9,331 nucleotides of DNA from IMG/VR virus record IMGVR_UViG_2526164667_000011, positions 1-9,331 of that record; one strand, 5' to 3'. Both the position numbers and the translations under genes were made by a program. Every line of letters starts with the position of its first letter. Positions within the stretch are counted from its first letter, which is position 1. The notes under the pieces were generated by a model. That model made no database searches. It saw nothing but the letters and a program-made list of their open reading frames with translations, and was not told the DNA's origin. Source of the stretch: a virus. Taxonomy: Duplodnaviria; Heunggongvirae; Uroviricota; Caudoviricetes. This document shows, piece by piece, positions 1 to 9,331 of the stretch.

Positions 1-677
1 GTCAGCGACCAGAATTTTTTGATGTTGTTAATCGCGGTACGGCTGTATCGTTCGCGTTGTTCAACGATCCCCAGCTTCACCATCTGGTGATATGCCTGAT
101 TAGCCGTCAGGCGGATACCATACTGTTTCAGCAGTGCACTCAGCGACAGCGTGGGGCGGCTTGAGCCATCAGGCGCATCAGCAGGAGCATCAATGGCATA
201 GCGCGGTGCCAGATTCGGTAAGCCAACAGCCTCCTGAAGTTTCTGACAGGCTCCAAGCACTGAAGAGTTAGACAGATTTAACTCCCGGCGCATAAAGTCC
301 AGCAGAATCACACCAGCCTGCATCTTGTCAGCAGCCTGTTCGGATAATTTTTCCGGTGCGCTGGTTACCATGTCGAAAGTACGGATCACCTTCAGATGGA
401 ATGACGGGCTGATCCACATTGCATAGGCATACACCAGTTCTTTGCAGACATACGTCCCCTGGTTATTTCCGCCACGAATAACGTTAACTGGCTCTATATT
501 GACCGAGTTGCAAATCTGCAACTCGCTTATTAAACGCTCAGTTTGCTCATTGCGGAGCCAGAATGCAGGCTTATGCTTATCCAGAGAACCGGCAGCCCTG
601 TGCAGATCGTTCAGGCTGTAACGACCATAAGCATCACGACGAACTTCAATACCATCAATGACCATCAGATTATTCAT
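1..677 (-). CDS. KilA-N domain-containing protein (phage antirepressor-like DNA-binding protein); 3'-partial, C-terminus lies beyond the window start
   Basis: Not in the ORF track because it runs off the window. I translated the minus-strand frame by hand: ATG at 677..675 with an AGGAGA Shine-Dalgarno 6-7 nt upstream, then open to position 3 with no stop (more than 225 codons). The N-terminus MNNLMVIDGIEVRRDAYGRYSLNDLHRAAG...KPAFWLRNEQTERLISEL...GTYVCKELVYAYAMWISPSFHLKVI matches the KilA-N/APSES fold pattern from memory. It starts 19 nt downstream of the rusA stop. Confidence 0.6.
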   Translation of the reverse strand, partial: MNNLMVIDGIEVRRDAYGRYSLNDLHRAAGSLDKHKPAFWLRNEQTERLISELQICNSVNIEPVNVIRGGNNQGTYVCKELVYAYAMWISPSFHLKVIRTFDMVTSAPEKLSEQAADKMQAGVILLDFMRRELNLSNSSVLGACQKLQEAVGLPNLAPRYAIDAPADAPDGSSRPTLSLSALLKQYGIRLTANQAYHQMVKLGIVEQRERYSRTAINNIKKFWSL

Positions 678-696
678 ACTTCGTTTCTCCTCTTAA

Positions 697-1086
697 TCAG
701 GCGGCTGCACCCGCCGTTTTCTCGTACTTACTGATAGTGATCTCGACCTTCCCTTCCGGGATAACCGGTCCCCACTCCACCAGCATTCTTTTCACCTGAC
801 TGTCGTCTTCCCACACACCCGCGTGGGTCAGGGCGTCAAACAGCGCCTTGTTATAGTTGTCCAGATCGCGGATCCGGTTATCCGGAGGAAACAACACGAT
901 CTCCACTGAAGCAGGTGCCGACGTTGGTTTTGGCAGACGACGTAACTGCTCAACTATTGCTGCACACGCCGCGCTCTGGAATTTGCGCCCCGCCGCGCTT
1001 ATCAGGCTCTTACCTGCAAACGCCCCTTTGTTGGGGTGTCGCCAGTACGTGTTCACGCTGGGCGGGAAAGGCAGAATCAGCTTCAT
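697..1086 (-). CDS. rusA: RusA-family Holliday junction resolvase (crossover junction endodeoxyribonuclease)
   Basis: 129-aa ORF. LPFPPSVNTYWRH...DNRIRDLDNYNKALFDALTHAGVWEDDSQV resembles E. coli/phage RusA (PWPPSxNxYYRH...DLDN...KAxxDALTxAGxWxDDxQV), including the acidic catalytic cluster. Its start overlaps the upstream gene's stop by 4 nt (ATGA). Confidence 0.85.
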   Translation of the reverse strand: MKLILPFPPSVNTYWRHPNKGAFAGKSLISAAGRKFQSAACAAIVEQLRRLPKPTSAPASVEIVLFPPDNRIRDLDNYNKALFDALTHAGVWEDDSQVKRMLVEWGPVIPEGKVEITISKYEKTAGAAA

Positions 1087-1409
1087 ACTTTCAGACCCCT
1101 CTCATGTAACCAGTGGGCTGCACGCAGCCTGGCGTTTTCCTCACCGGCAAGCAGTGAGCGGATAATCCCGACCGCCTCGCTGTCGTCGTCCTTCACCGCG
1201 GTATGAAGCGTTATCCCCCGGGCCACACCACGCTTTATCGTGATGACGCCTTTTTTCTCCAGTGCGCGAAGATGCTCCACCGCTGCATTCACTGAACGAT
1301 ATCCCAGCATGGTTGCCACCTCCTGATTGGTTGGCGGAAAGCCACGCTCTTTCTGGTAAGAAATCAGCATATCCAGCACCTGCTGCTGGCATTGAGTTAA
1401 CGTCGTCAT
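1083..1409 (-). CDS. LexA N-terminal DNA-binding-domain-like protein (winged helix), lacking the S24 peptidase domain
   Basis: 108-aa ORF. LTQCQQQVLDMLISYQKERGFPPTNQEVATMLGYRSVNAAVEHLRALEKKGVITIKRGVARGITL parallels the LexA N-terminus ([65 protein letters not shown]). There is no GDSM/K peptidase region. 4-nt overlaps with both neighbouring genes. Confidence 0.7.
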   Translation of the reverse strand: MTTLTQCQQQVLDMLISYQKERGFPPTNQEVATMLGYRSVNAAVEHLRALEKKGVITIKRGVARGITLHTAVKDDDSEAVGIIRSLLAGEENARLRAAHWLHERGLKV

Positions 1410-2059
1410 GCCGCCATCTCCCTGACCAGTTTTTCCGCCTGCTGGCGAACCTGCGCCAGAAAGGCCTCACCACATGCCTCAAGTTCATCGCGCCCGATGT
1501 AGCTGATTGCCGGTCCCTTCCAGGTCTTGTCGAAAACAGCAATAGCACCAGCGAAGAAAGCGCCTGTCGGTACCTGCTTCTCGTCTTTCGGGATAAACCA
1601 GACAGGCAGTTCAAAACCAATACGCCCGCGAATAAAAGCAATATGATCTGCATCTTCCGGCCACCACACTTCGCTGGTGGCAGCTTTAATCAGGAAAACA
1701 TAGCGCCCGCCTTTATCACGCATGGCACTGGCATGCTTCATGATGTAACGCATGCCGGTGATGTATTGCCCCTCATGCTGACTGGCGCGGCTGTATGGGG
1801 GATTACCAAAGGCAGCACCTTTAAGCTCCGCAAGACGTTCTGACCAGTCATGCGCCAGCGCGTTGTCTTCCGCCGTGTAATACGCGGCACATTTGGCATT
1901 ATCACCGTCAGTGAACAGATCCAGAACAAACGGGCCAAACAGGGTGTTAATTCCCCAGAAAATGTTGTCCGGCGTGCGCCACTGATCGCCCACTTCCTTC
2001 AGTTCATGGGCTGGTTTGTTCCGCAGTTCCACCAGCGCCTGGCAATATTTATTACTCAT
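1406..2059 (-). CDS. Phage orphan N6-adenine DNA methyltransferase (Dam-like, NPPY motif)
   Basis: The protein contains GAAFGNPPYS, the catalytic (D/N)PPY motif IV of N6-adenine methyltransferases, and has typical phage Dam size. No restriction endonuclease partner is adjacent. The ORF track starts it at GTG 2092 (228 aa); I prefer ATG 2059 (217 aa, MSNKYCQ...), which forms a TAATG stop/start junction with the upstream gene and follows a GGGGG purine run. Confidence 0.75.
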   Translation of the reverse strand: MSNKYCQALVELRNKPAHELKEVGDQWRTPDNIFWGINTLFGPFVLDLFTDGDNAKCAAYYTAEDNALAHDWSERLAELKGAAFGNPPYSRASQHEGQYITGMRYIMKHASAMRDKGGRYVFLIKAATSEVWWPEDADHIAFIRGRIGFELPVWFIPKDEKQVPTGAFFAGAIAVFDKTWKGPAISYIGRDELEACGEAFLAQVRQQAEKLVREMAA

Positions 2060-2553
2060 TAAGCCCCCACGTAATTCCCTGACAGATACCACTCTTCACC
2101 CGATGCAGCGCGCTTGCTGCTTTTCCGTAAGCACCGCTCACGACGCGCCAGAAAATTGTTTCGCTCTTGCTGGGAGTGGCTTTCACGGAATGCCGCCATC
2201 CACACCGTTGCAGCACGACGGTATAAGCCCCTGGACTCCAGTTCTTCCGCCTGGCGGGTCAGGCACAAAATCACCCGTGGATCGTTAGTGCCGACATAGA
2301 AATTGCGCACAGGTCTGGTTTCTCGAACTGGTTGTGGTTCCGGTTCCTGCGCTCTCTCAGTCAGGCGCGGGAAATGTCTGCGTGTATCTCCTTCACAACG
2401 GTGAGCCACACGCCCGCTCTGACGTAACTTGCTTGCTGACCGCAGAACGCGCTGCCGTGAGTAACCTGCAAAAGCATCCGCAATGTCTCCGGAAGTACAC
2501 CCCGGATGGGCTTCAATGAATTTCTGAACGTCATTCAAAAGACTCATGATCAC
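2059..2553 (-). CDS. Putative transcriptional regulator with PerC-like C-terminal motif and a winged-helix-like N-terminus
   Basis: 164-aa ORF. The C-terminal segment LESRGLYRRAATVWMAAFRESHSQQERNNFLARRERCL resembles the PerC-family signature (GLWRRAAxRW) from memory. Start is GTG 2553 (4-nt overlap with the O-like stop) or ATG 2547. Same size and position as YfdN of CPS-53, from memory. Confidence 0.55.
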   Translation of the reverse strand: MIMSLLNDVQKFIEAHPGCTSGDIADAFAGYSRQRVLRSASKLRQSGRVAHRCEGDTRRHFPRLTERAQEPEPQPVRETRPVRNFYVGTNDPRVILCLTRQAEELESRGLYRRAATVWMAAFRESHSQQERNNFLARRERCLRKSSKRAASGEEWYLSGNYVGA

Positions 2554-3389
2554 CCCCTGAATCCTGCCGGGATCTGGCTGTAGTCCACGTTGTCGTAACT
2601 GGCTTTGAAGTACGGGTCCTCACGTCCGGCTACAGATACCGCAGGAACTTCCCAGGATTCTTCGAAATGACGATCCGGACCAAAGAACGTGACAGCCTGT
2701 TTCACAAATTGTGTGCCGCTGTTACCCATCGCAGATACCCAGCCCGCGTAGCGTTTCACACCTTCCAGCATGGTTTCGGGGTTTACCCCCTCATTCAAAC
2801 GGGCTTTCCAGGCTTTGAAGGCTGCAGATTTTGAATTGCCACCAGCACGTTTGGGATATGCCAGCCATGCCTGCTCAAACTCTGGAGAGTATTCCGGTCG
2901 GTTTGAACGAACTCGCACAGACTCATCAGCAGATGCACCAACAGCTATTGGTTCATTGACTGGTTCTTTGACTGGTTCAAAAGAGTGACTGGTTCTGGGT
3001 GAATCTCCTGCACTACCCCCTGGTGCAACTCCTGCACTACCTAGTGCAACTCCTGCACTACCTGGTGAATTTGCTGCACCAGATAGTGAATTATTTGCAC
3101 TACTCCCTAGTGAATCTCCTGCACCATCAAGATGAAGGAGATAGATATTACTTGAGTTACCTTTTTCACCTTTCCGGGTGACTTTTTTTACCAGCCCGGA
3201 CTCACAAAGGGCCGCAATATGATTCATCACAGAACGTTTGCTAATCTCGCACTGGTCAGCAATATGCTGGTAGCTGGGCCAGCACTCACCCTGATCGCTG
3301 GCATTATCAGCCAGCTTGATCAGAACCAGTTTTCGCAATGGATTACCCACTCGAATTTTCATCGCTTTAACCATCAGCTCCATACTCAT
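2550..3389 (-). CDS. Replication initiation protein, lambda O-like: N-terminal HTH DNA-binding domain, Gly/Ser/Ala-rich repeat linker encoded by the iterons, C-terminal replisome-organiser-like domain
   Basis: 279-aa ORF with a GGAGG Shine-Dalgarno 6 nt before ATG 3389. The N-terminus (KLVLIKLADNASDQGECWPSYQHIADQCEISKRSVMNHIAALCESGLVKK) is HTH-like. The linker GSAG-rich repeats coincide with the DNA repeats at 2999..3130. The C-terminal FEQAWLAYPKRAGGNSKSAAFKAWKAR motif resembles phage replication initiators. Architecture mirrors lambda O, whose gene also contains the origin. Confidence 0.75.
   Translation of the reverse strand: MSMELMVKAMKIRVGNPLRKLVLIKLADNASDQGECWPSYQHIADQCEISKRSVMNHIAALCESGLVKKVTRKGEKGNSSNIYLLHLDGAGDSLGSSANNSLSGAANSPGSAGVALGSAGVAPGGSAGDSPRTSHSFEPVKEPVNEPIAVGASADESVRVRSNRPEYSPEFEQAWLAYPKRAGGNSKSAAFKAWKARLNEGVNPETMLEGVKRYAGWVSAMGNSGTQFVKQAVTFFGPDRHFEESWEVPAVSVAGREDPYFKASYDNVDYSQIPAGFRG
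2999..3130. repeat. Iteron array (candidate phage origin of replication) inside the O-like gene: six tandem 21/24-bp units
   Basis: Units begin at 2999, 3023, 3044, 3065, 3086 and 3110. Examples are GTGCAACTCCTGCACTACCTA and GTGAATCTCCTGCACTACCCCCTG. Each unit holds an internal dyad (GTGCA...TGCAC). Periods are multiples of 3, so the reading frame is kept. An A+T-rich stretch follows at 3131..3193 (ATAGATATTA, CTTTTTCAC, ACTTTTTTTACC). Confidence 0.6.
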
Positions 3390-3610
3390 GCTGCACCTCC
3401 GAGATGCTTCATGTTTTTTCCGGAGCGAAAGGCTATAAGCGGCATACTGACGCGGTAATTACGGCCCAGCGGTTCACAAATCACCTTCTGACATTCACGG
3501 TCAACCAGGCTAACACGTAGAACATGCCCTGCAGGTGTGGTGTACCACTGACCCGGACGAGGACAACGGAAAGTCTGATTGGTAAACCGTTTGAAAATAT
3601 TCCGGATCAT
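3386..3610 (-). CDS. Small hypothetical protein (74 aa) between the Rha-domain gene and the O-like gene
   Basis: The ORF is bounded by 4-nt ATGA overlaps on both sides (start overlaps the Rha stop at 3607..3610; stop overlaps the O-like start at 3386..3389), the same coupling pattern as the rest of the operon. No recognisable motif. Its 3' end contains the O-like gene's Shine-Dalgarno. Confidence 0.45.
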   Translation of the reverse strand: MIRNIFKRFTNQTFRCPRPGQWYTTPAGHVLRVSLVDRECQKVICEPLGRNYRVSMPLIAFRSGKNMKHLGGAA

Positions 3611-4752
3611 TTGCGCCCCCTTACCTCTGAAGGGTTCAGCGACAAATTTATGAGGCAGGCCAGTGCCGAAGCATCATTAATATAGTCATACAAGCTAACA
3701 GCCAGCGGAGATTCGGCTTTTGCCAACATAGGATAAAGCTGCTGCAGCCAGACCTGATGAATTGATGAAATGTAGGAATAGAGAACGCTGGCGTTATGTG
3801 CAACGTCGCTCAGTACAGAGGGATTTGAAAGCTGTTTCTCCATCTGGTTAAAGGCATTGATGTATGCCTCTTTGAACTGGGCAGCACGTTTACCCGTGAA
3901 GCCCATGGCAAGAAACGCAAAACCGTCGCGGGTGATTTGGTAACAAGGGAGTTTGCGGCCTGTGCAATCGGTGTAATCACTGGGCTGAAAATTCAGCTCA
4001 GTGAATTCAACAGAGCACTCAAGCGTCTGGATTTTTTGAATAACGTTTTTGTGCTGCTTGCAGAAATATTCGGCAACGGCCAAAGAAGAGGTAACAGCCT
4101 TCCCATGGATAACATCAATTTTAGGGTGAGTTTGGGTAGGGGTGGTTGCCATAGTGACATCCTCATGTGCGAATTTTGAAAACTCACCACATGGGACGCC
4201 AATCACAGAGGTGGTGAGACGTACAGGGTTGGCGTAACCGGTCGCACATGACCCCGGCGCATCTTTCGATGCCCCTGCACGCCCCACCATAATTTGGATG
4301 TGAGGAAACGTGCGCAAAAAAACCGCTGAAGCGCGGTTATGCGCATGTGCGAATTTCAGGACGCCAATCCCGGCACCCGCTTTATAAGGTGCCTGAGCAG
4401 TGTAACGTCCCGGAATTGCAGAATCAATATGCTGGTGGTCCTTCACACTCAACAAAATCACGCCTGAATTTCCACAAAGGACTAAAGCACTCATGCGGGT
4501 AGTCTTTGCGAAGATAGATAACGCGCTGTGTTTCTGGCTCCCAACGAATAACATGGACATAAAGCCCTCTTCCGTCACGAAACCAGCGGTTAAGTTCCTG
4601 CACAACTCGCCCCCCACAGTCAGGTAAAGTTCTCTGTGGTTACTTACAGCCAGGTGATTTGGTAATCTGCATTCATGCCGTAACAACAGGTGTTCAGCGA
4701 CGCTGACCACCAGCTGTTGCGACAAACGGTTATTTGCCGTTAAACTGTTCAT
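3607..4752 (-). CDS. Rha-family phage regulatory protein; the track ORF is 381 aa with the Rha domain at about residues 205-300, and an internal ATG at 4152 would give a canonical 181-aa Rha protein
   Basis: VTSSLAVAEYFCKQHKNVIQKIQ...YQITRDGFAFLAMGFTGKRAAQFKEAYINAFNQMEKQL matches the Phage_pRha signature (ITRDGFxFLxMGFTGKxA...FxxAFNxME). The frame is open for 1146 nt, with an ATGA overlap with the upstream gene at 4749..4752. The internal ATG at 4152..4150 (Met201) has a GAGGA Shine-Dalgarno 7 nt upstream and sits where Rha proteins normally begin. Confidence 0.6.
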   Translation of the reverse strand: MNSLTANNRLSQQLVVSVAEHLLLRHECRLPNHLAVSNHRELYLTVGGELCRNLTAGFVTEEGFMSMLFVGSQKHSALSIFAKTTRMSALVLCGNSGVILLSVKDHQHIDSAIPGRYTAQAPYKAGAGIGVLKFAHAHNRASAVFLRTFPHIQIMVGRAGASKDAPGSCATGYANPVRLTTSVIGVPCGEFSKFAHEDVTMATTPTQTHPKIDVIHGKAVTSSLAVAEYFCKQHKNVIQKIQTLECSVEFTELNFQPSDYTDCTGRKLPCYQITRDGFAFLAMGFTGKRAAQFKEAYINAFNQMEKQLSNPSVLSDVAHNASVLYSYISSIHQVWLQQLYPMLAKAESPLAVSLYDYINDASALACLINLSLNPSEVRGRK

Positions 4753-5300
4753 GCGTTAGTTTCTCCACAGACACAAAACGCCACGACGCCCGGAGCTGCA
4801 CACTCGCGGGCGTCACTCTTTTCTGGAGCGCAAAAGATTTTGTAGACCAGTGCTGCATGCTCCTGGAGCTTCGAAATTGACAGATACAACTCATCATTAA
4901 TTGCTGTCTGCTCGTGTGGCTCCACTACCCCATCTTCGATTGCCGAACGAATCTGCTTTGAGTAACTCCCGATCTGTTCGATGGCTTCCAGCAGGCGCTG
5001 GTTTATATCGGCGTTCTCTACTTCCTCAATTTCAGGAAGCGATACAAACACCCCACCAGCAGACTGTGCGACAGCATCCGCAATGTAGTGAGTGCCAGCC
5101 GCGCGCTGTAAAATCATTGCCCATCCCAGCGGGAAAATCTGATCGCCATCTGCACGAAGGCGGTTGAATAAAGCGTTCTCTGTTACATCCAGCCACTCAG
5201 CAGCTTCAGCGTAACCTCCCGGCAACGCCGCGATAGTTTTTCTGACAGCTTTCACGTACCACTCAGGTTGTTTTTCCACTTTCCAGTGATGCTTACCCAC
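4749..5300 (-). CDS. Putative CII-like phage regulatory protein (in the cII position immediately after cro; possibly the CP76/YdaT-like family)
   Basis: 183-aa ORF with a GTG start at 5300 and a strong GGAGGT Shine-Dalgarno 5 nt upstream, which lies inside the 3' end of cro (8-nt overlap). Assignment is mainly by position/synteny; family membership is from weak memory only. Confidence 0.5.
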   Translation of the reverse strand: MGKHHWKVEKQPEWYVKAVRKTIAALPGGYAEAAEWLDVTENALFNRLRADGDQIFPLGWAMILQRAAGTHYIADAVAQSAGGVFVSLPEIEEVENADINQRLLEAIEQIGSYSKQIRSAIEDGVVEPHEQTAINDELYLSISKLQEHAALVYKIFCAPEKSDARECAAPGVVAFCVCGETNA

Positions 5301-5553
5301 GGCTTACCTCCTGTTCCTGTGGTTTAAACCCATTCTGGTTTTGGCTAGATTGAAAACGTGCCGGATAAAGAATCTGCATTTCGCTGATTTCACCCTTAAA
5401 AAAATTGGCCAGACGTTCTGCAAGATCGATAAATGGAATTTGTTCCTGTCTTTCAATACGACTCAGCGTCGCTGGATTGACCTGAACGCCCGCAGCAACA
5501 TGCTGCAAAGTAAATCCGTGCGCCTTACGCACATTCCGTAATGGTGATTGCAT
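5293..5553 (-). CDS. Cro-like HTH transcriptional regulator (XRE/Cro-C1 family)
   Basis: 86-aa ORF divergent from the cI-like gene. The HTH segment is GFTLQHVAAGVQVNPATLSRIERQEQIP. GGAGG Shine-Dalgarno 5-6 nt upstream of ATG 5553. First gene of the minus-strand early operon. Confidence 0.8.
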   Translation of the reverse strand: MQSPLRNVRKAHGFTLQHVAAGVQVNPATLSRIERQEQIPFIDLAERLANFFKGEISEMQILYPARFQSSQNQNGFKPQEQEVSRG

Positions 5554-5650
5554 ATAACCTCCACATATTGCGTGATGAGCATATTATTTCACGCAAATAT
5601 TTTGCGCAAGTTGATTTGCTTAACGCGCAATAAAGAAATGTAATAAACGC
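5554..5650. promoter_or_regulatory. Divergent cI/cro operator-promoter region (PR/PRM-like) with clustered TTGCG/CGCAA half-site palindromes
   Basis: Inverted repeats: TTGCGTGA-N13-TCACGCAA (about 5568..5596), CGCAAA-TAT-TTTGCG (5592..5606), palindromic TTGCGCAA (5602..5609) and TTGCttaacgcGCAA (5617..5630). Candidate minus-strand promoter for cro: -35 TTGCGC, 17-bp spacer, -10 TAATAT. Candidate plus-strand promoter for cI: -35 TTGCTT (5617..5622), 16-bp spacer, -10 TGTAAT (5639..5644), placing the transcript start at or next to the cI ATG. Confidence 0.55.
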
Positions 5651-6343
5651 ATGAACATAGGAAATCGAGTCAGACAACTTCGCCAGGCGAAGAACATGAA
5701 AATCGCCGATCTCGCTGAAGCAATAGGAGTGGATGCGGCGAATATCTCGCGCCTCGAAACAGGTAAGCAGAAACAATTCACTGAACAAGCCCTGAGTAAT
5801 ATTGCCAGGAGCTTAGGTGTTGATATTGCTGATCTCTTTACCTCAGACCTCAAAAGTAATACTGTATGTAAAAACAGTATTAGTGAGGATGTTGCGCAGG
5901 TGAAGGATGTATTCCGTATTGAAATGCTGGATGTCAGTGCCAGTGCGGGAAATGGCCTTATCCAGGGCGGTGATGTCATTGATGTGATTCATGCCATTGA
6001 ATACAGAACTGATAATGCTGTATCGATGTTTGGTGGACGACCAGCAAATCACATTAAAGTTATCAACGTTCGTGGGGACAGTATGTGTCCAACCATTGAG
6101 CCAGGAGATCTCATCTTCGTTGATATCAGTATCAATCAGTTTGATGGGGATGGTATATATGTATTTGGTTTTGATGATAAAATTTACGTCAAACGACTGC
6201 AAATGATACCTGATAAACTGCTGGTAATTTCTGATAATCAGATTTACCGCGAATGGGGAATTACCAGCGAAAACGAACATCGGTTTATGGTCTTTGGAAA
6301 GGTCTTAATCAGTCAGTCACAAACCCTTAAGCGACACAATTAA
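5651..6343 (+). CDS. cI: cI-like phage repressor: N-terminal HTH_XRE domain plus C-terminal S24 (LexA-like) autopeptidase domain
   Basis: 230-aa ORF. HTH: MKIADLAEAIGVDAANISRLETGKQ. Peptidase: Ser nucleophile in VRGDSMCPTIEPGDLIFVD (Ser144) and Lys in IYVKRL (Lys181), 37 residues apart as in LexA. Candidate Ala-Gly autocleavage site at Ala99-Gly100 (SASAGNG). No Shine-Dalgarno precedes the ATG. Confidence 0.9.
   Translation: MNIGNRVRQLRQAKNMKIADLAEAIGVDAANISRLETGKQKQFTEQALSNIARSLGVDIADLFTSDLKSNTVCKNSISEDVAQVKDVFRIEMLDVSASAGNGLIQGGDVIDVIHAIEYRTDNAVSMFGGRPANHIKVINVRGDSMCPTIEPGDLIFVDISINQFDGDGIYVFGFDDKIYVKRLQMIPDKLLVISDNQIYREWGITSENEHRFMVFGKVLISQSQTLKRHN
5860..5879. promoter_or_regulatory. SOS-box (LexA-box)-like palindrome TACTGTATGTAAAAACAGTA inside the cI coding sequence (interdomain linker)
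   Basis: Matches the E. coli LexA box consensus TACTGTATATATATACAGTA at 16 of 20 positions, with a perfect CTGT-N8-ACAG core and AT-rich centre. It is the only CTGT-N8-ACAG site I found in the window. Function is untested. Confidence 0.4.
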
Positions 6344-6364
6344 CCCCTACCTCAACATCAATTA

Positions 6365-6384
6365 GCCACCAGAAGGTGGCTTTT
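6365..6384 (+). terminator. Rho-independent terminator downstream of the cI-like gene
   Basis: GCCACC-agaa-GGTGGC hairpin (6-bp GC-rich stem, 4-nt loop) followed directly by TTTT, 22 nt after the cI stop. Confidence 0.6.
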
Positions 6385-6397
6385 CATCACCCACCAA

Positions 6398-6452
6398 ATT
6401 GCATATCTCGCAATAAAAACACTTGCATAATGCGCAACTTCATTTTATCTTT
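6398..6452 (+). promoter_or_regulatory. Candidate OL/PL-like operator-promoter for the rightward yfdP-yfdQ-yfdR operon
   Basis: ATTGC-atatctc-GCAAT (6398..6415) and TTGC-ataatgc-GCAA (6423..6437) repeat the TTGC/GCAA half-sites seen in the cI-cro region. Possible promoter: -35 TTGCAT (6423..6428), 17-bp spacer, -10 TATCTT (6446..6451). Hexamer assignment is tentative. Confidence 0.3.
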
Positions 6453-6883
6453 CTTTCCAGACATACAAACAAGGTACTAACAAAATTTGGTTGTAACACG
6501 GCGTATGGCACATGCGTCGTTAGCGGTCTGGTGACGTTAAAGGGGACAATCCACTCCTTGCTCGAGCAAACAAACCAGGTAGCCGGAATGTGCAAGTCAA
6601 TGATGACGCTGATAAGACGCCTAACCAGCGTGGCGATTCGGTTTGACGCCTGGGAAGAGACCAGGGTGCAACGATGAGGGCATTTATGGAACCGCGACAA
6701 AGTGTGGTGCCGTAACTGGCTAAGTGCTCTCAGCGTTGTGGTGAATGCGCAGGCTGATGCGCGAAAGACATTGCAGCTATTGCGGAAAAGAGCTGTTCGG
6801 CGGGGCAATTAAACGCCCGTGAGAGTCTGAAATAACCGCAAGCCGGAGATCAGCACCGGTCACCACAGCAGCCACTGCTTTGG

Positions 6884-6929
6884 CGGTACCAGTTTGTACA
6901 CTTGCTTACGGCTGGTACCGCTCTTTTTA
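6884..6929 (+). terminator. Hairpin followed by a T-run in the long leader before yfdP (terminator-like, or an RNA element with a boxA-like CGCTCTTTTTA)
   Basis: Perfect 9-bp stem CGGTACCAG/CTGGTACCG (6884..6892 and 6912..6920) with a 19-nt loop, followed by CTCTTTTTA. The sequence CGCTCTTTTTA (6919..6929) resembles a lambdoid/rrn boxA (CGCTCTTA / TGCTCTTTAACAA). The large loop makes a classic terminator uncertain. Confidence 0.35.
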
Positions 6930-7065
6930 CAAAACAGAGAAGAGCATCACCGGACGACGGGCTCATAACCCAATCCATCCGGGCGGCTGCCACCGCAGGT
7001 GTTCTTCTCTGTTTTGTGGAGAAACCAACCGACCTTGCAGGGTCGATATGATGAGGAGTAGCAAA

Positions 7066-7428
7066 ATGGCTAGCGAACGCAGTACTGATGTGCAGGCATT
7101 TATCGGGGAGCTGGACGGCGGCGTATTTGAAACCAAAATCGGCGCAGTTCTCAGTGAAGTCGCTTCCGGTGTGATGAACACGAAAACCAAAGGTAAGGTC
7201 TCGCTCAACCTGGAAATCGAACCGTTTGATGAGAACCGTGTGAAAATCAAACACAAACTCTCATATGTTCGCCCGACTAACCGCGGGAAAATTTCTGAAG
7301 AAGACACCACCGAAACGCCGATGTATGTCAATCGCGGTGGTCGCCTGACTATTCTGCAGGAAGACCAGGGACAATTACTGACTCTTGCCGGTGAACCTGA
7401 CGGAAAACTCCGCGCAGAAGGTCATTAA
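7066..7428 (+). CDS. Hypothetical protein, YfdP-like (CPS-53/KpLE1 prophage family), 120 aa
   Basis: The track ORF starts at 6880, but the plausible start is ATG 7066 (MASERSTDVQAFIGELDGG...), preceded by GAGGAG about 8 nt upstream; two ATGs at 7047/7050 lack a Shine-Dalgarno. The size and the position immediately upstream of yfdQ fit YfdP from memory. Confidence 0.65.
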   Translation: MASERSTDVQAFIGELDGGVFETKIGAVLSEVASGVMNTKTKGKVSLNLEIEPFDENRVKIKHKLSYVRPTNRGKISEEDTTETPMYVNRGGRLTILQEDQGQLLTLAGEPDGKLRAEGH

Positions 7429-7493
7429 TATCGTTCTTAATTAACTGATTATTTATCTCATCACTGAATATCTTAATATAGTGAGGACTTATT

Positions 7494-8318
7494 ATGTCTC
7501 AGAACTTAGACGCAACCGCAATTAATCAAATCCATGCCCTTATTTCTGCTCAGGGTGTTAATGAAATTATCAGTAAGATTGGTGCCGATGCTGTGGCATT
7601 GCCTGAGAATTTCCGCATTCATGATCTGGAAAAATTTAATTTAAATCGCTTCCGTTTCCGTGGTGCGCTTTCCACTGCCAGCATCGATGACTTTACCCGT
7701 TATTCTAAAGATCTTGCAGATGAAGGCACCCGCTGCTTTATCGATGCCGATAATATGCGAGCAGTCAGTGTGCTTAACCTGGGTACTATTGATGAACCAG
7801 GTCACGCAGATAACACCGCCACTCTCAAACTGAAAAAGACAGCACCGTTCTCTGCCCTGTTGTCTGTTAACGGCGAGCGTAACTCCCAGAAGTCACTGGC
7901 AGAATGGATTGAAGACTGGGCCGACTACCTTGTGGGCTTTGATGCTAATGGTGACGCTATTCAGGCAACAAAAGCGGCTGCGGCGGTCCGTAAAATCACG
8001 ATTGAAGCAAACCAGACCGCTGATTTTGAAGATAATGACTTCAGCGGCAAACGCTCCCTGATGGAGTCTGTCGAAGCGAAGACCAAAGATATTATGCCAG
8101 TGGCATTTGAATTTAAATGCGTTCCGTTTGAAGGTCTGAAAGAACGTCCGTTTAAATTACGCCTCAGCATTATCACTGGCGATCGTCCTGTACTGGTTCT
8201 GCGCATTATTCAGCTGGAGGCGGTGCAGGAAGAAATGGCTAACGAATTTCGTGATCTGCTTGTTGAGAAATTCAAGGACAGCAAAGTAGAAACCTTTATT
8301 GGTACTTTCACCGCCTGA
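7494..8318 (+). CDS. yfdQ: YfdQ-family protein (DUF2303), 274 aa
   Basis: GAGGA Shine-Dalgarno about 8 nt upstream of the ATG. Length and sequence ([21 protein letters not shown]...) match my recollection of E. coli K-12 CPS-53 YfdQ. It lies directly upstream of the HD-domain yfdR-like gene, as in K-12. Confidence 0.8.
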
Positions 8319-8330
8319 TTTCATTACTGC

Positions 8331-8355
8331 AAATGCCCCTGCGGGGGCATTTATG
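8331..8355 (+). terminator. Stem-loop downstream of yfdQ (possible weak intrinsic terminator or attenuator)
   Basis: AAATGCCCC-tgcg-GGGGCATTT hairpin (9-bp stem with a GC-rich core) starting 13 nt after the yfdQ stop. The trailing U-tract is short (AUUUAUGG), so termination is probably partial. Confidence 0.4.
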
Positions 8356-8445
8356 GAAACGTAATTTACTCAATAATCGCCGGATGGTGAGGGATTCTTT
8401 TTACCAGAATTCAGCGCGGTGCAGCGCATATACGTGGAGAACAAA

Positions 8446-9331
<886 letters not shown>

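Follow-up and report, generated by a model that had tools for sequence, protein, structure and literature searches.

In bacteriophage lambda, the origin of replication lies within the gene of its own initiator, O: dyad-symmetric iterons of about 18-19 bp, annotated as 18-bp elements in mid-O with spacings of 20, 24 and 23 bp, occupy DNA coding for a linker. O binds DNA through its N-terminal domain and brings in the helicase loader through its C-terminal one; its gene belongs to the cro-cII operon, and a block of ~25% GC (counted on the lambda sequence) follows the last iteron. The origin is also located within the initiator gene in the Bacillus phage SPP1 (G38P/oriL). In plasmids with winged-helix Rep proteins (pSC101 RepA, F RepE, R6K pi, RK2 TrfA), the initiator binds phased repeats beside an unwinding element, but the iterons of plasmids are direct repeats to which monomers bind, and their usual position is outside the rep gene, alongside DnaA boxes. 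Here we have analysed 9,331 nucleotides of a Caudoviricetes virus (IMG/VR record IMGVR_UViG_2526164667_000011, positions 1 to 9,331; hereafter the window), in which a gene for a 279-residue initiator carries an array of phased dyads next to an invariant block. Based on sequence comparisons and on the likeness to lambda, the segment 2945-3130, embedded in the linker-coding part of this gene, is probably the replication origin of the phage.

The concept in itself is ordinary for specialists of lambdoid phages, who routinely infer origins in this way (e.g. PMC8022706). The lambdoid initiators encoded by gene 18 of P22 and gene 18 of phage L, for instance, have their own iteron sets in the coding region, inferred from sequence alone (PMC8022706); by their description they are set apart from the present locus by the sequence and length of the repeats (11 bp in phage L) and by the DnaB-type helicase gene 12 located downstream. 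The Stx phages 933W and P27 have lambda-type origins with six iterons (PMC7466680), and iteron copy number differs between phages (lambda-type four versus six). The DNA of the window initiator gene is 97.1% identical to that of Stx2a_WGPS2 (AP012537), the reference phage of 'Eru6', and the window module is therefore assigned to Eru6, with which it shares the succession of a Rha/Ash gene and an HTH_36 gene. The Eru5-like phages F451 and Min27 have the N-domain, the iteron architecture and the block in common with the window. Fagerlund et al. classed the Eru5 and Eru6 modules as non-lambdoid, with replication proteins said to be uncharacterised, and their iterons or origin go unmentioned (PMC8951638); literature searches on iterons in the HTH_36 initiator family gave only work on the lambda-O type. 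The present analysis would assign a concrete origin and initiator to the Eru6 module and, by extension, to Eru5-like modules. The module is frequently met in prophages of E. coli and in phages that carry Shiga toxin, and replication capacity after induction affects the toxin dose.

Iterons and their predicted cognate initiator

The main features of the initiator gene are the following.

2550..3389, minus strand: initiator gene (open reading frame and translation, 279 aa)
3135..3389, minus strand: coding sequence of the winged-helix DNA-binding domain (aa 1-85; AF2 pLDDT 80-93)
3131..3193, minus strand: mildly A+T-rich stretch, coding for the wing of the winged helix, KKVTRKGEKGNSSNIYLLHLD
3110..3124, minus strand: iteron 1 (in gene order), GTGCAGGAGATTCAC, from the pattern scan
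3086..3100, minus strand: iteron 2, GTGCAAATAATTCAC, from the pattern scan
3065..3079, minus strand: iteron 3, GTGCAGCAAATTCAC, from the pattern scan
3044..3058, both strands match: iteron 4, GTGCAGGAGTTGCAC, a perfect dyad with 7-nt arms (TAGTGCA/TGCACTA)
3023..3037, both strands match: iteron 5, GTGCAGGAGTTGCAC, a perfect dyad
2999..3013, minus strand: iteron 6, GTGCAGGAGATTCAC, 2 nt from the invariant block
2968..2996, minus strand: core of the invariant block, AGAACCAGTCACTCTTTTGAACCAGTCAA, 29 bp with two GAACCAGTCA direct repeats, coding for RTSHSFEPVK
2945..2967, minus strand: continuation of the block, with a third exact GAACCAGTCA at 2957-2966 and a degenerate fourth, GAACCAATAG, at 2945-2954, coding for EPVNEPIA
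2553..2912, minus strand: coding sequence of the C-terminal helical domain (aa ~160-279), the presumed recruiter of the helicase or its loader

Tandem Repeats Finder detects 5.7 copies of a 21-bp unit at 2999-3124, and a repeat search resolves six copies spaced by 24, 21, 21, 21 and 24 bp, i.e. by about two helical turns. The 15-bp core GTGMA-N5-TGCAC has exactly six matches in the 9.3-kb window, all within 2999-3124, against 0.04 expected by chance (0 of 200 shuffles reach six). No other repeat array was found in the window by Tandem Repeats Finder or by the pattern scan. A preliminary description of this DNA, made from the letters alone, had placed six phased 21/24-bp repeats in linker-coding DNA, and this is confirmed. 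It had also seen a GTGCA...TGCAC dyad in each copy. Such a dyad is perfect in two of the six (3023-3037 and 3044-3058), where the arms reach 7 nt (TAGTGCA-N5-TGCACTA), whereas the remaining four read GTGAA...TGCAC on the plus strand, with one arm mismatch. The array codes for aa 87-130 of the 279, between the winged helix and the C-terminal helical domain and at pLDDT <50; the linker as a whole (aa 91-164) is predicted to be disordered, again with pLDDT <50 in the AF2 model. A consensus promoter scan listed no promoter-like sites in the array or the block.

The copy number of the array is polymorphic in whole 21-bp units, with alleles of 1, 2, 5, 6 (the window), 7, 8 and 9 copies, as expected for iterons. 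The commonest allele encodes a 272-aa protein with 5 copies, lacking one of the iteron 4/iteron 5 units. A protein search gave 5373 homologs, and no cluster in it is larger than that of this allele, with 2852 member sequences. Copy-number alleles are seen in proteins P0001, P0002, P0014, P0018, P0028 and P0040, and those with 1 and 2 copies are present on many contigs. Deletions in lambda ori- mutants occur between iterons; by likeness to these, and speculatively, the alleles with 1 and 2 copies may belong to decaying prophages whose origins are crippled.

The AF2 model of the initiator displays a confident winged helix over aa 1-89, with four helices (3-11, 17-29, 40-47 and 51-64) and a wing in the form of a beta-hairpin (67-85). 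The helix at aa 51-64, SKRSVMNHIAAL, is the predicted recognition helix. In Pfam, HTH_36 matches aa 17-67 (E=1.9e-11) and DnaD_N matches weakly. Foldseek gave no match for the C-domain (AF2 pLDDT 60-77) and otherwise only generic winged-helix matches, the DnaD N-domain 2v79 among them, none with E below 0.02. PHROG 270, labelled 'replication initiation protein', matches aa 3-278 (E=5.4e-88). Other PHROG families are common to the initiator and lambda O: PHROG 391 is matched by the N-domain of the former and the C-domain of the latter, while PHROG 678 and PHROG 345 are matched by both N-domains at overlapping profile positions. These matches suggest that the two proteins may be remote homologs, although Pfam and BLASTP do not link them. 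The C-domain itself matches PHROG 26426 'replication protein' and PHROG 1701 'DnaD-like helicase loader' (E=5e-32). The same C-domain, 72% identical to initiator aa 143-257, is found in the phage Stx2_KH16-043, where a DnaC-like gene then follows. This arrangement hints that the C-domain of the window may work with DnaC-type loaders. In the HTH_36 initiator of Stx2_KH16-043 (locus L088, 1491-3321), the N-domain is unrelated to that of the window and the linker repeats are of another kind (three copies of TCTGAACCTTCAAAA).

The preliminary description had named a comparison of homologs as decisive, asking whether nucleotide repeats or only amino-acid repeats persist. The 80 close IMG/VR relatives (~96% identical) are too similar to decide on the synonymous conservation of the repeats, and diverged homologs retrieved by tblastn were used for this reason (whole protein ~46-50% identical, N-domains 63-74% identical). 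These homologs contain phased 15-bp dyads, 21 or 24 bp apart and beginning right after the wing, but both the sequence and the encoded peptide differ each time.

Vibrio phage D290: dyad GTGAC-N5-GTCAC, peptide PSDxMSP
Stx2a_F451 and Min27: dyad GGGCAGGAGCTGCCC, peptide GGAGAA
Salmonella phage S107: dyad GCACA-N5-TGTGC, peptide STPPVPP
Vibrio D79 and E. coli mEp010: dyad GTGAC-ACAGA-GTCAC
Pseudomonas phage LESphi3: its own dyad set

The dyads at the DNA level thus persist while the amino-acid repeats change, and this favours a function of the DNA, as dyad symmetry has no meaning in a peptide. The comparison was extended to several hundred loci, with 76 distinct N-domain sequences among them. 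Across these 76 N-domains, the dyads lie at fixed offsets of -17, -41, -62, -83/-86 and -107 from the start of the block, the last dyad being at -17 in nearly all lineages. Moreover, 12 half-site classes track residues 50-61 of the N-domains, a segment that coincides with the predicted recognition helix. Examples of this correspondence are listed below.

SKRSVMNHI: half-sites GTGCA/GTGAA
SKRSVMRHI and DKRTAMRHI: half-sites GTGAC/GTGAT
xRSTVKxHIR: half-sites GGGCA/GGGCG
CSKSAVRxHID: half-sites TGCCA/TGCCG
IDRSTVRRHIK: half-site TAGGC
MSRKTAIGHI: half-site GTGTA

Binding of the dyads by the initiator N-domain is well supported by this correlation across homologs. The iteron sequence would moreover be specific to the cognate initiator, a claim made by correlation only, between half-site and recognition helix. 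With its 76 N-domain variants and its 12 half-site classes in a fixed register, the family amounts to a natural table of winged-helix specificities, which could be used for building orthogonal replicons. One locus stands apart: L121 (IMGVR_UViG_2537561977_000031, ~3570-3598) has a single GGGCAG..CTGCCC dyad together with the block, while the upstream sequence is unlike an N-domain; this looks like what is left of an F451-type origin after rearrangement.

In other phages, the cassette formed by the N-domain and the iterons is combined with C-domains from at least 9 unrelated families. In a Microbulbifer prophage, it is fused to a lambda-O C-domain (41% identity, E=3e-21), and in another type of relative a gene of the lambda P family (PF06992, E=2.6e-35) comes after the cassette gene. 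In further relatives with other C-domains, DnaC-like, DnaB-like or primase-helicase genes follow the cassette gene. By analogy, we infer that the initiator is a functional equivalent of lambda O, and it is from this equivalence that its locus would derive a role as origin.

The invariant block and the upstream flank

Directly after iteron 6, the sequence reads CC-AGAACCAGTCACTCTTTTGAACCAGTCAA-nGAACC, and GAACC repeats continue to 2945 with a spacing of 12 nt. Three exact GAACCAGTCA direct repeats are found at 2957-2995 on the minus strand, where shuffles expect 0.55. These repeats fell inside the region 2940-3195 singled out in the preliminary description but went undescribed there, and the strand of the gene is here corrected to minus. 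Across 63 lineages, a ~37-bp block, CCAGAACCAGTCACTCTTTTGAACCAGTCAAnGAACC, is conserved at >=90% per base from -2 to +35, compared with 30-40% on either side, and its edges are sharp and the same in all 63. It also occurs at L083 1831-1870, L084 1856-1895 and L085 1881-1920. Neither the iterons on one flank of the block nor the C-domains on its other flank are related from one of these lineages to the next. The exact core is present on >120 IMG/VR contigs and in 35 species genomes from 12 gammaproteobacterial genera (Pseudomonas, Xenorhabdus, Photorhabdus, Providencia, Proteus, Enterobacter, Izhakiella, Haemophilus, Shewanella, Parashewanella, Microbulbifer and Marinomonas). When a fully codon-degenerate scan was made for RTSHSFEPVxEP, 142 loci were recovered, only 3 of which have a single synonymous change. 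In 21 lineages with <80% N-domain identity, codons at identical residues are the same for 207/220 positions (94%) in the block versus 425/1070 (40%) in the N-domain; the corresponding Fisher p=7e-56 is only indicative, because the lineages are not independent. Distant relatives lacking the exact block have GAACC-N7 repeats with a 12-nt period at the same position after the iterons.

The block is not A+T-rich (43% GC over 2955-2998), and in 58-69% of lineages its stability is modestly below the mean of the locus. Ideas of a host factor acting there were dropped, as it has no DnaA or IHF consensus site and GATC sites show no enrichment. In the literature searched, neither the sequence of the block nor the peptide RTSHSFEPV was found in any paper. 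The identity of the block from Haemophilus to Pseudomonas, synonymous sites included, beside hypervariable iterons is unexpected and points to an undescribed common initiation step. A separate observation concerns the annotated 'O' of Min27 (L086 1501-2169), which differs from the F451 gene (L084 1501-2277) by a one-base deletion just past the block (…AACATTATGTTCGAAC… in F451 against …AACATTATGTCGAAC… in Min27). As a result, the C-terminal ~90 residues of the annotated protein are read out of frame, which reflects either a sequencing error or a defective initiator.

On the other side of the array, the stretch 3131-3193 had been proposed as an A+T-rich unwinding region. It has 36.5% GC against a window mean of 49.4%, which corresponds to the 5.6th percentile of 63-bp windows, several of them lower elsewhere. 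The least stable 30-mer near the array (3130-3170) lies within this flank, and the equivalent stretch is merely mildly destabilised across lineages. It is situated upstream of the first iteron, on the N-terminal and promoter-proximal side, whereas the lambda block follows the last iteron; in that place, the locus has instead the 43% GC invariant block with its GAACCAGTCA repeats. Synonymous differences between homologs are frequent in 3131-3193, indicating ordinary divergence and no conservation at the DNA level. Its upstream side, its role in coding for the Lys/Asn-rich wing and this synonymous divergence all disfavour a lambda-style unwinding element. The same flank contains a terminator-like hairpin on the plus strand at 3166-3189 (TCACCTTTCCGGGTGA then CTTTTTTT), antisense to the initiator gene and just beyond the first iteron. 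The hairpin (3166-3181) is not conserved in diverged homologs and is probably due to chance for this reason.

A candidate origin and its alternatives

These features can be arranged in a plausible scheme of initiation. The N-terminal winged helix would bind each 15-bp dyad (GTGCA/GTGAA-N5-TGCAC), probably as a dimer, a step strongly supported by the comparison of homologs. Judging from the geometry and from lambda, the 21/24-bp spacing would align the proteins along a single face of the helix and lead to an O-some-like complex. This complex may then destabilise a neighbouring stretch; the GAACCAGTCA-repeat block (2945-2998) is the preferred candidate, because it is on the lambda-equivalent side and, of the two flanks, it alone is conserved as DNA; the alternative would be the upstream flank with its mild A+T richness. 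Finally, as domain shuffling suggests, the C-domain would recruit the replicative helicase. This is presumably the host DnaB, via DnaC, since no phage loader or helicase gene is present. Transcription of the rightward-operon type, from a promoter on the cro side, would run through the iterons and the block as in lambda.

Several results weigh against this interpretation. The initiator has no match to PF04492 (Phage_rep_O) at E<=0.01, whereas lambda O itself matches this family at 5.7e-36, and BLASTP of the initiator against lambda O gave nothing meaningful. The preliminary description had called the gene 'O-like'; its product matches HTH_36 instead, and no P-like gene comes after it. While a P gene lies downstream of O in lambda, Pfam searches identified no P, DnaB, DnaC or primase gene in the window, and thus no helicase-loader gene follows the initiator. 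Neither a DnaA box (TTWTNCACA) nor the IHF consensus (WATCAANNNNTTR) has a match anywhere in the window, unlike what is seen in plasmid iteron origins, and no strongly A+T-rich element is found next to the iterons (block 43% GC, upstream flank 36.5% GC). The C-domain matches nothing in Pfam or NCBIfam, a PDB sequence search was also empty, and its presumed function in the recruitment of a helicase or loader comes solely from the PHROG labels. The lineages used in the statistics are not independent of each other, and many were found via the block itself. Moreover, the block sits at the junction where domains are shuffled, and its identity could owe something to recombination. The earlier interpretation of ori-lambda-style iterons inside the initiator gene, bound by its N-domain, is therefore partly supported. 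It was right in kind, as indicated by the dyads of the homologs, by their co-variation with the recognition helix and by the lambda-O and P partners of the cassette; it was wrong in some details, namely the protein family, the P gene and the flank likely to be unwound or used for loading.

Could the dyads have a function other than an origin? They might be operator-like sites for self-regulation or copy-number control (roadblock, handcuffing), the origin being elsewhere in the prophage. Winged-helix plasmid initiators commonly autoregulate through inverted repeats; the sites described here are palindromic and not purely direct, and the lack of a strongly A+T-rich element adjoining them would also be consistent with operators. 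Nevertheless, the 5-9 phased sites exceed the need of an operator, their architecture fits the annotated iterons of lambda (20, 24 and 23 bp apart, inside O), the cassette travels with helicase-recruiting domains and their partners, and there is no second repeat array in the 9.3-kb window. We thus consider an operator function improbable. An explanation without any role for the DNA, in which the repeats merely encode a low-complexity Gly/Ser/Ala peptide linker changing by slippage, appears very improbable to us. The predicted disorder of the encoded segment and the polymorphic copy number are what such a linker would display. However, the peptides are wholly different between lineages, yet the dyad symmetry, the 15-bp core, the spacing and the register are kept, and the half-sites vary in step with the recognition helix. 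The probability that a given unit shows a five-base arm match at fixed spacing by chance is ~1e-3, and such matches are seen in at least 12 sequence classes.

The block calls for more caution than the dyads. Tentatively, and with less than even confidence, we regard it as a universal cis-acting origin core, the site of initiator-dependent opening or of helicase loading, which would be recognised by the highly conserved N-terminal ~47 residues of the initiators or by a conserved host replication protein. The cis-acting reading is preferred because synonymous sites are conserved, codons rare in the hosts are used, and the edges are sharp and common to the lineages. If it is true, hundreds of gammaproteobacterial phages share one 'origin core', flanked by a hypervariable specificity cassette (recognition helix and iterons) and by an exchangeable helicase-recruitment domain. 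It is also conceivable, and in our opinion only slightly less likely, that the block is not an initiation element acting in cis but owes its uniformity to a role as recombination linker between the specificity and helicase-recruiting modules, to a function of the peptide PRTSHSFEPV as a short binding motif, or to both. Its position coincides exactly with the point at which at least 9 unrelated C-domains join the cassette. The encoded peptide is likewise conserved, and non-synonymous changes such as F to L and S to Y figure among the few differences seen. In addition, GAACC is a plain Glu-Pro codon pair, and EPxx repeats are common as linkers. Against an explanation of the conservation by the peptide or by recombination speaks the codon identity of 94% in the block versus 40% in the adjoining conserved domain. 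The codons AGA, AGT and TCT are rare in host bacteria, but the block keeps them in host genera of very different G+C content (loci of 38-63% GC). Recombination tracts would be ragged, whereas the edges of the block are sharp and common to 63 lineages, and a linker would be under no obvious selection purging synonymous changes.

Gene context and source of the segment

The window matches the chromosomes of several sequenced E. coli strains at 100% over 8969 bases and is thus a prophage segment. The genes upstream of the initiator gene are the following.

3386..5553, minus strand: upstream part of the operon (cro-like, cII-like, Rha/Ash and 74-aa genes)
3386-3610, minus strand: 74-aa open reading frame, directly upstream of the initiator gene and in the same operon
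3607-4752, minus strand: Rha/Ash gene (Pfam match), same operon
4749-5300, minus strand: cII-like gene (Pfam match), same operon
5293-5553, minus strand: cro-like gene (Pfam match), same operon
5651-6343, plus strand: cI-like repressor gene (Pfam match), divergent from the operon

The initiator gene therefore occupies a position in a rightward-type early operon, downstream of cro and cII, as in lambda-type origins. On its 3' side are found genes for a PerC/MarR-like regulator and then a Dam methylase (Pfam). The initiator gene is 95-97% identical to its counterparts in many Stx2 phages, cdtI, mEp460 and SfV, the annotation of which varies ("replication protein O", "primosomal protein I", "helix-turn-helix protein"). 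A 5-iteron allele is the sole recognisable replication gene of NZ_CP148393.1 (L294), across its complete 44.6-kb genome. This circular sequence of 44,611 bp is filed as an E. coli plasmid but is a complete lambdoid phage genome, with terminase, portal, tail, lysis, integrase and cI/cro genes. The genes neighbouring its initiator gene bear the names of K-12 cryptic-prophage genes, i.e. ymfK/L/T (e14) and yfdN/P/Q/R (CPS-53).

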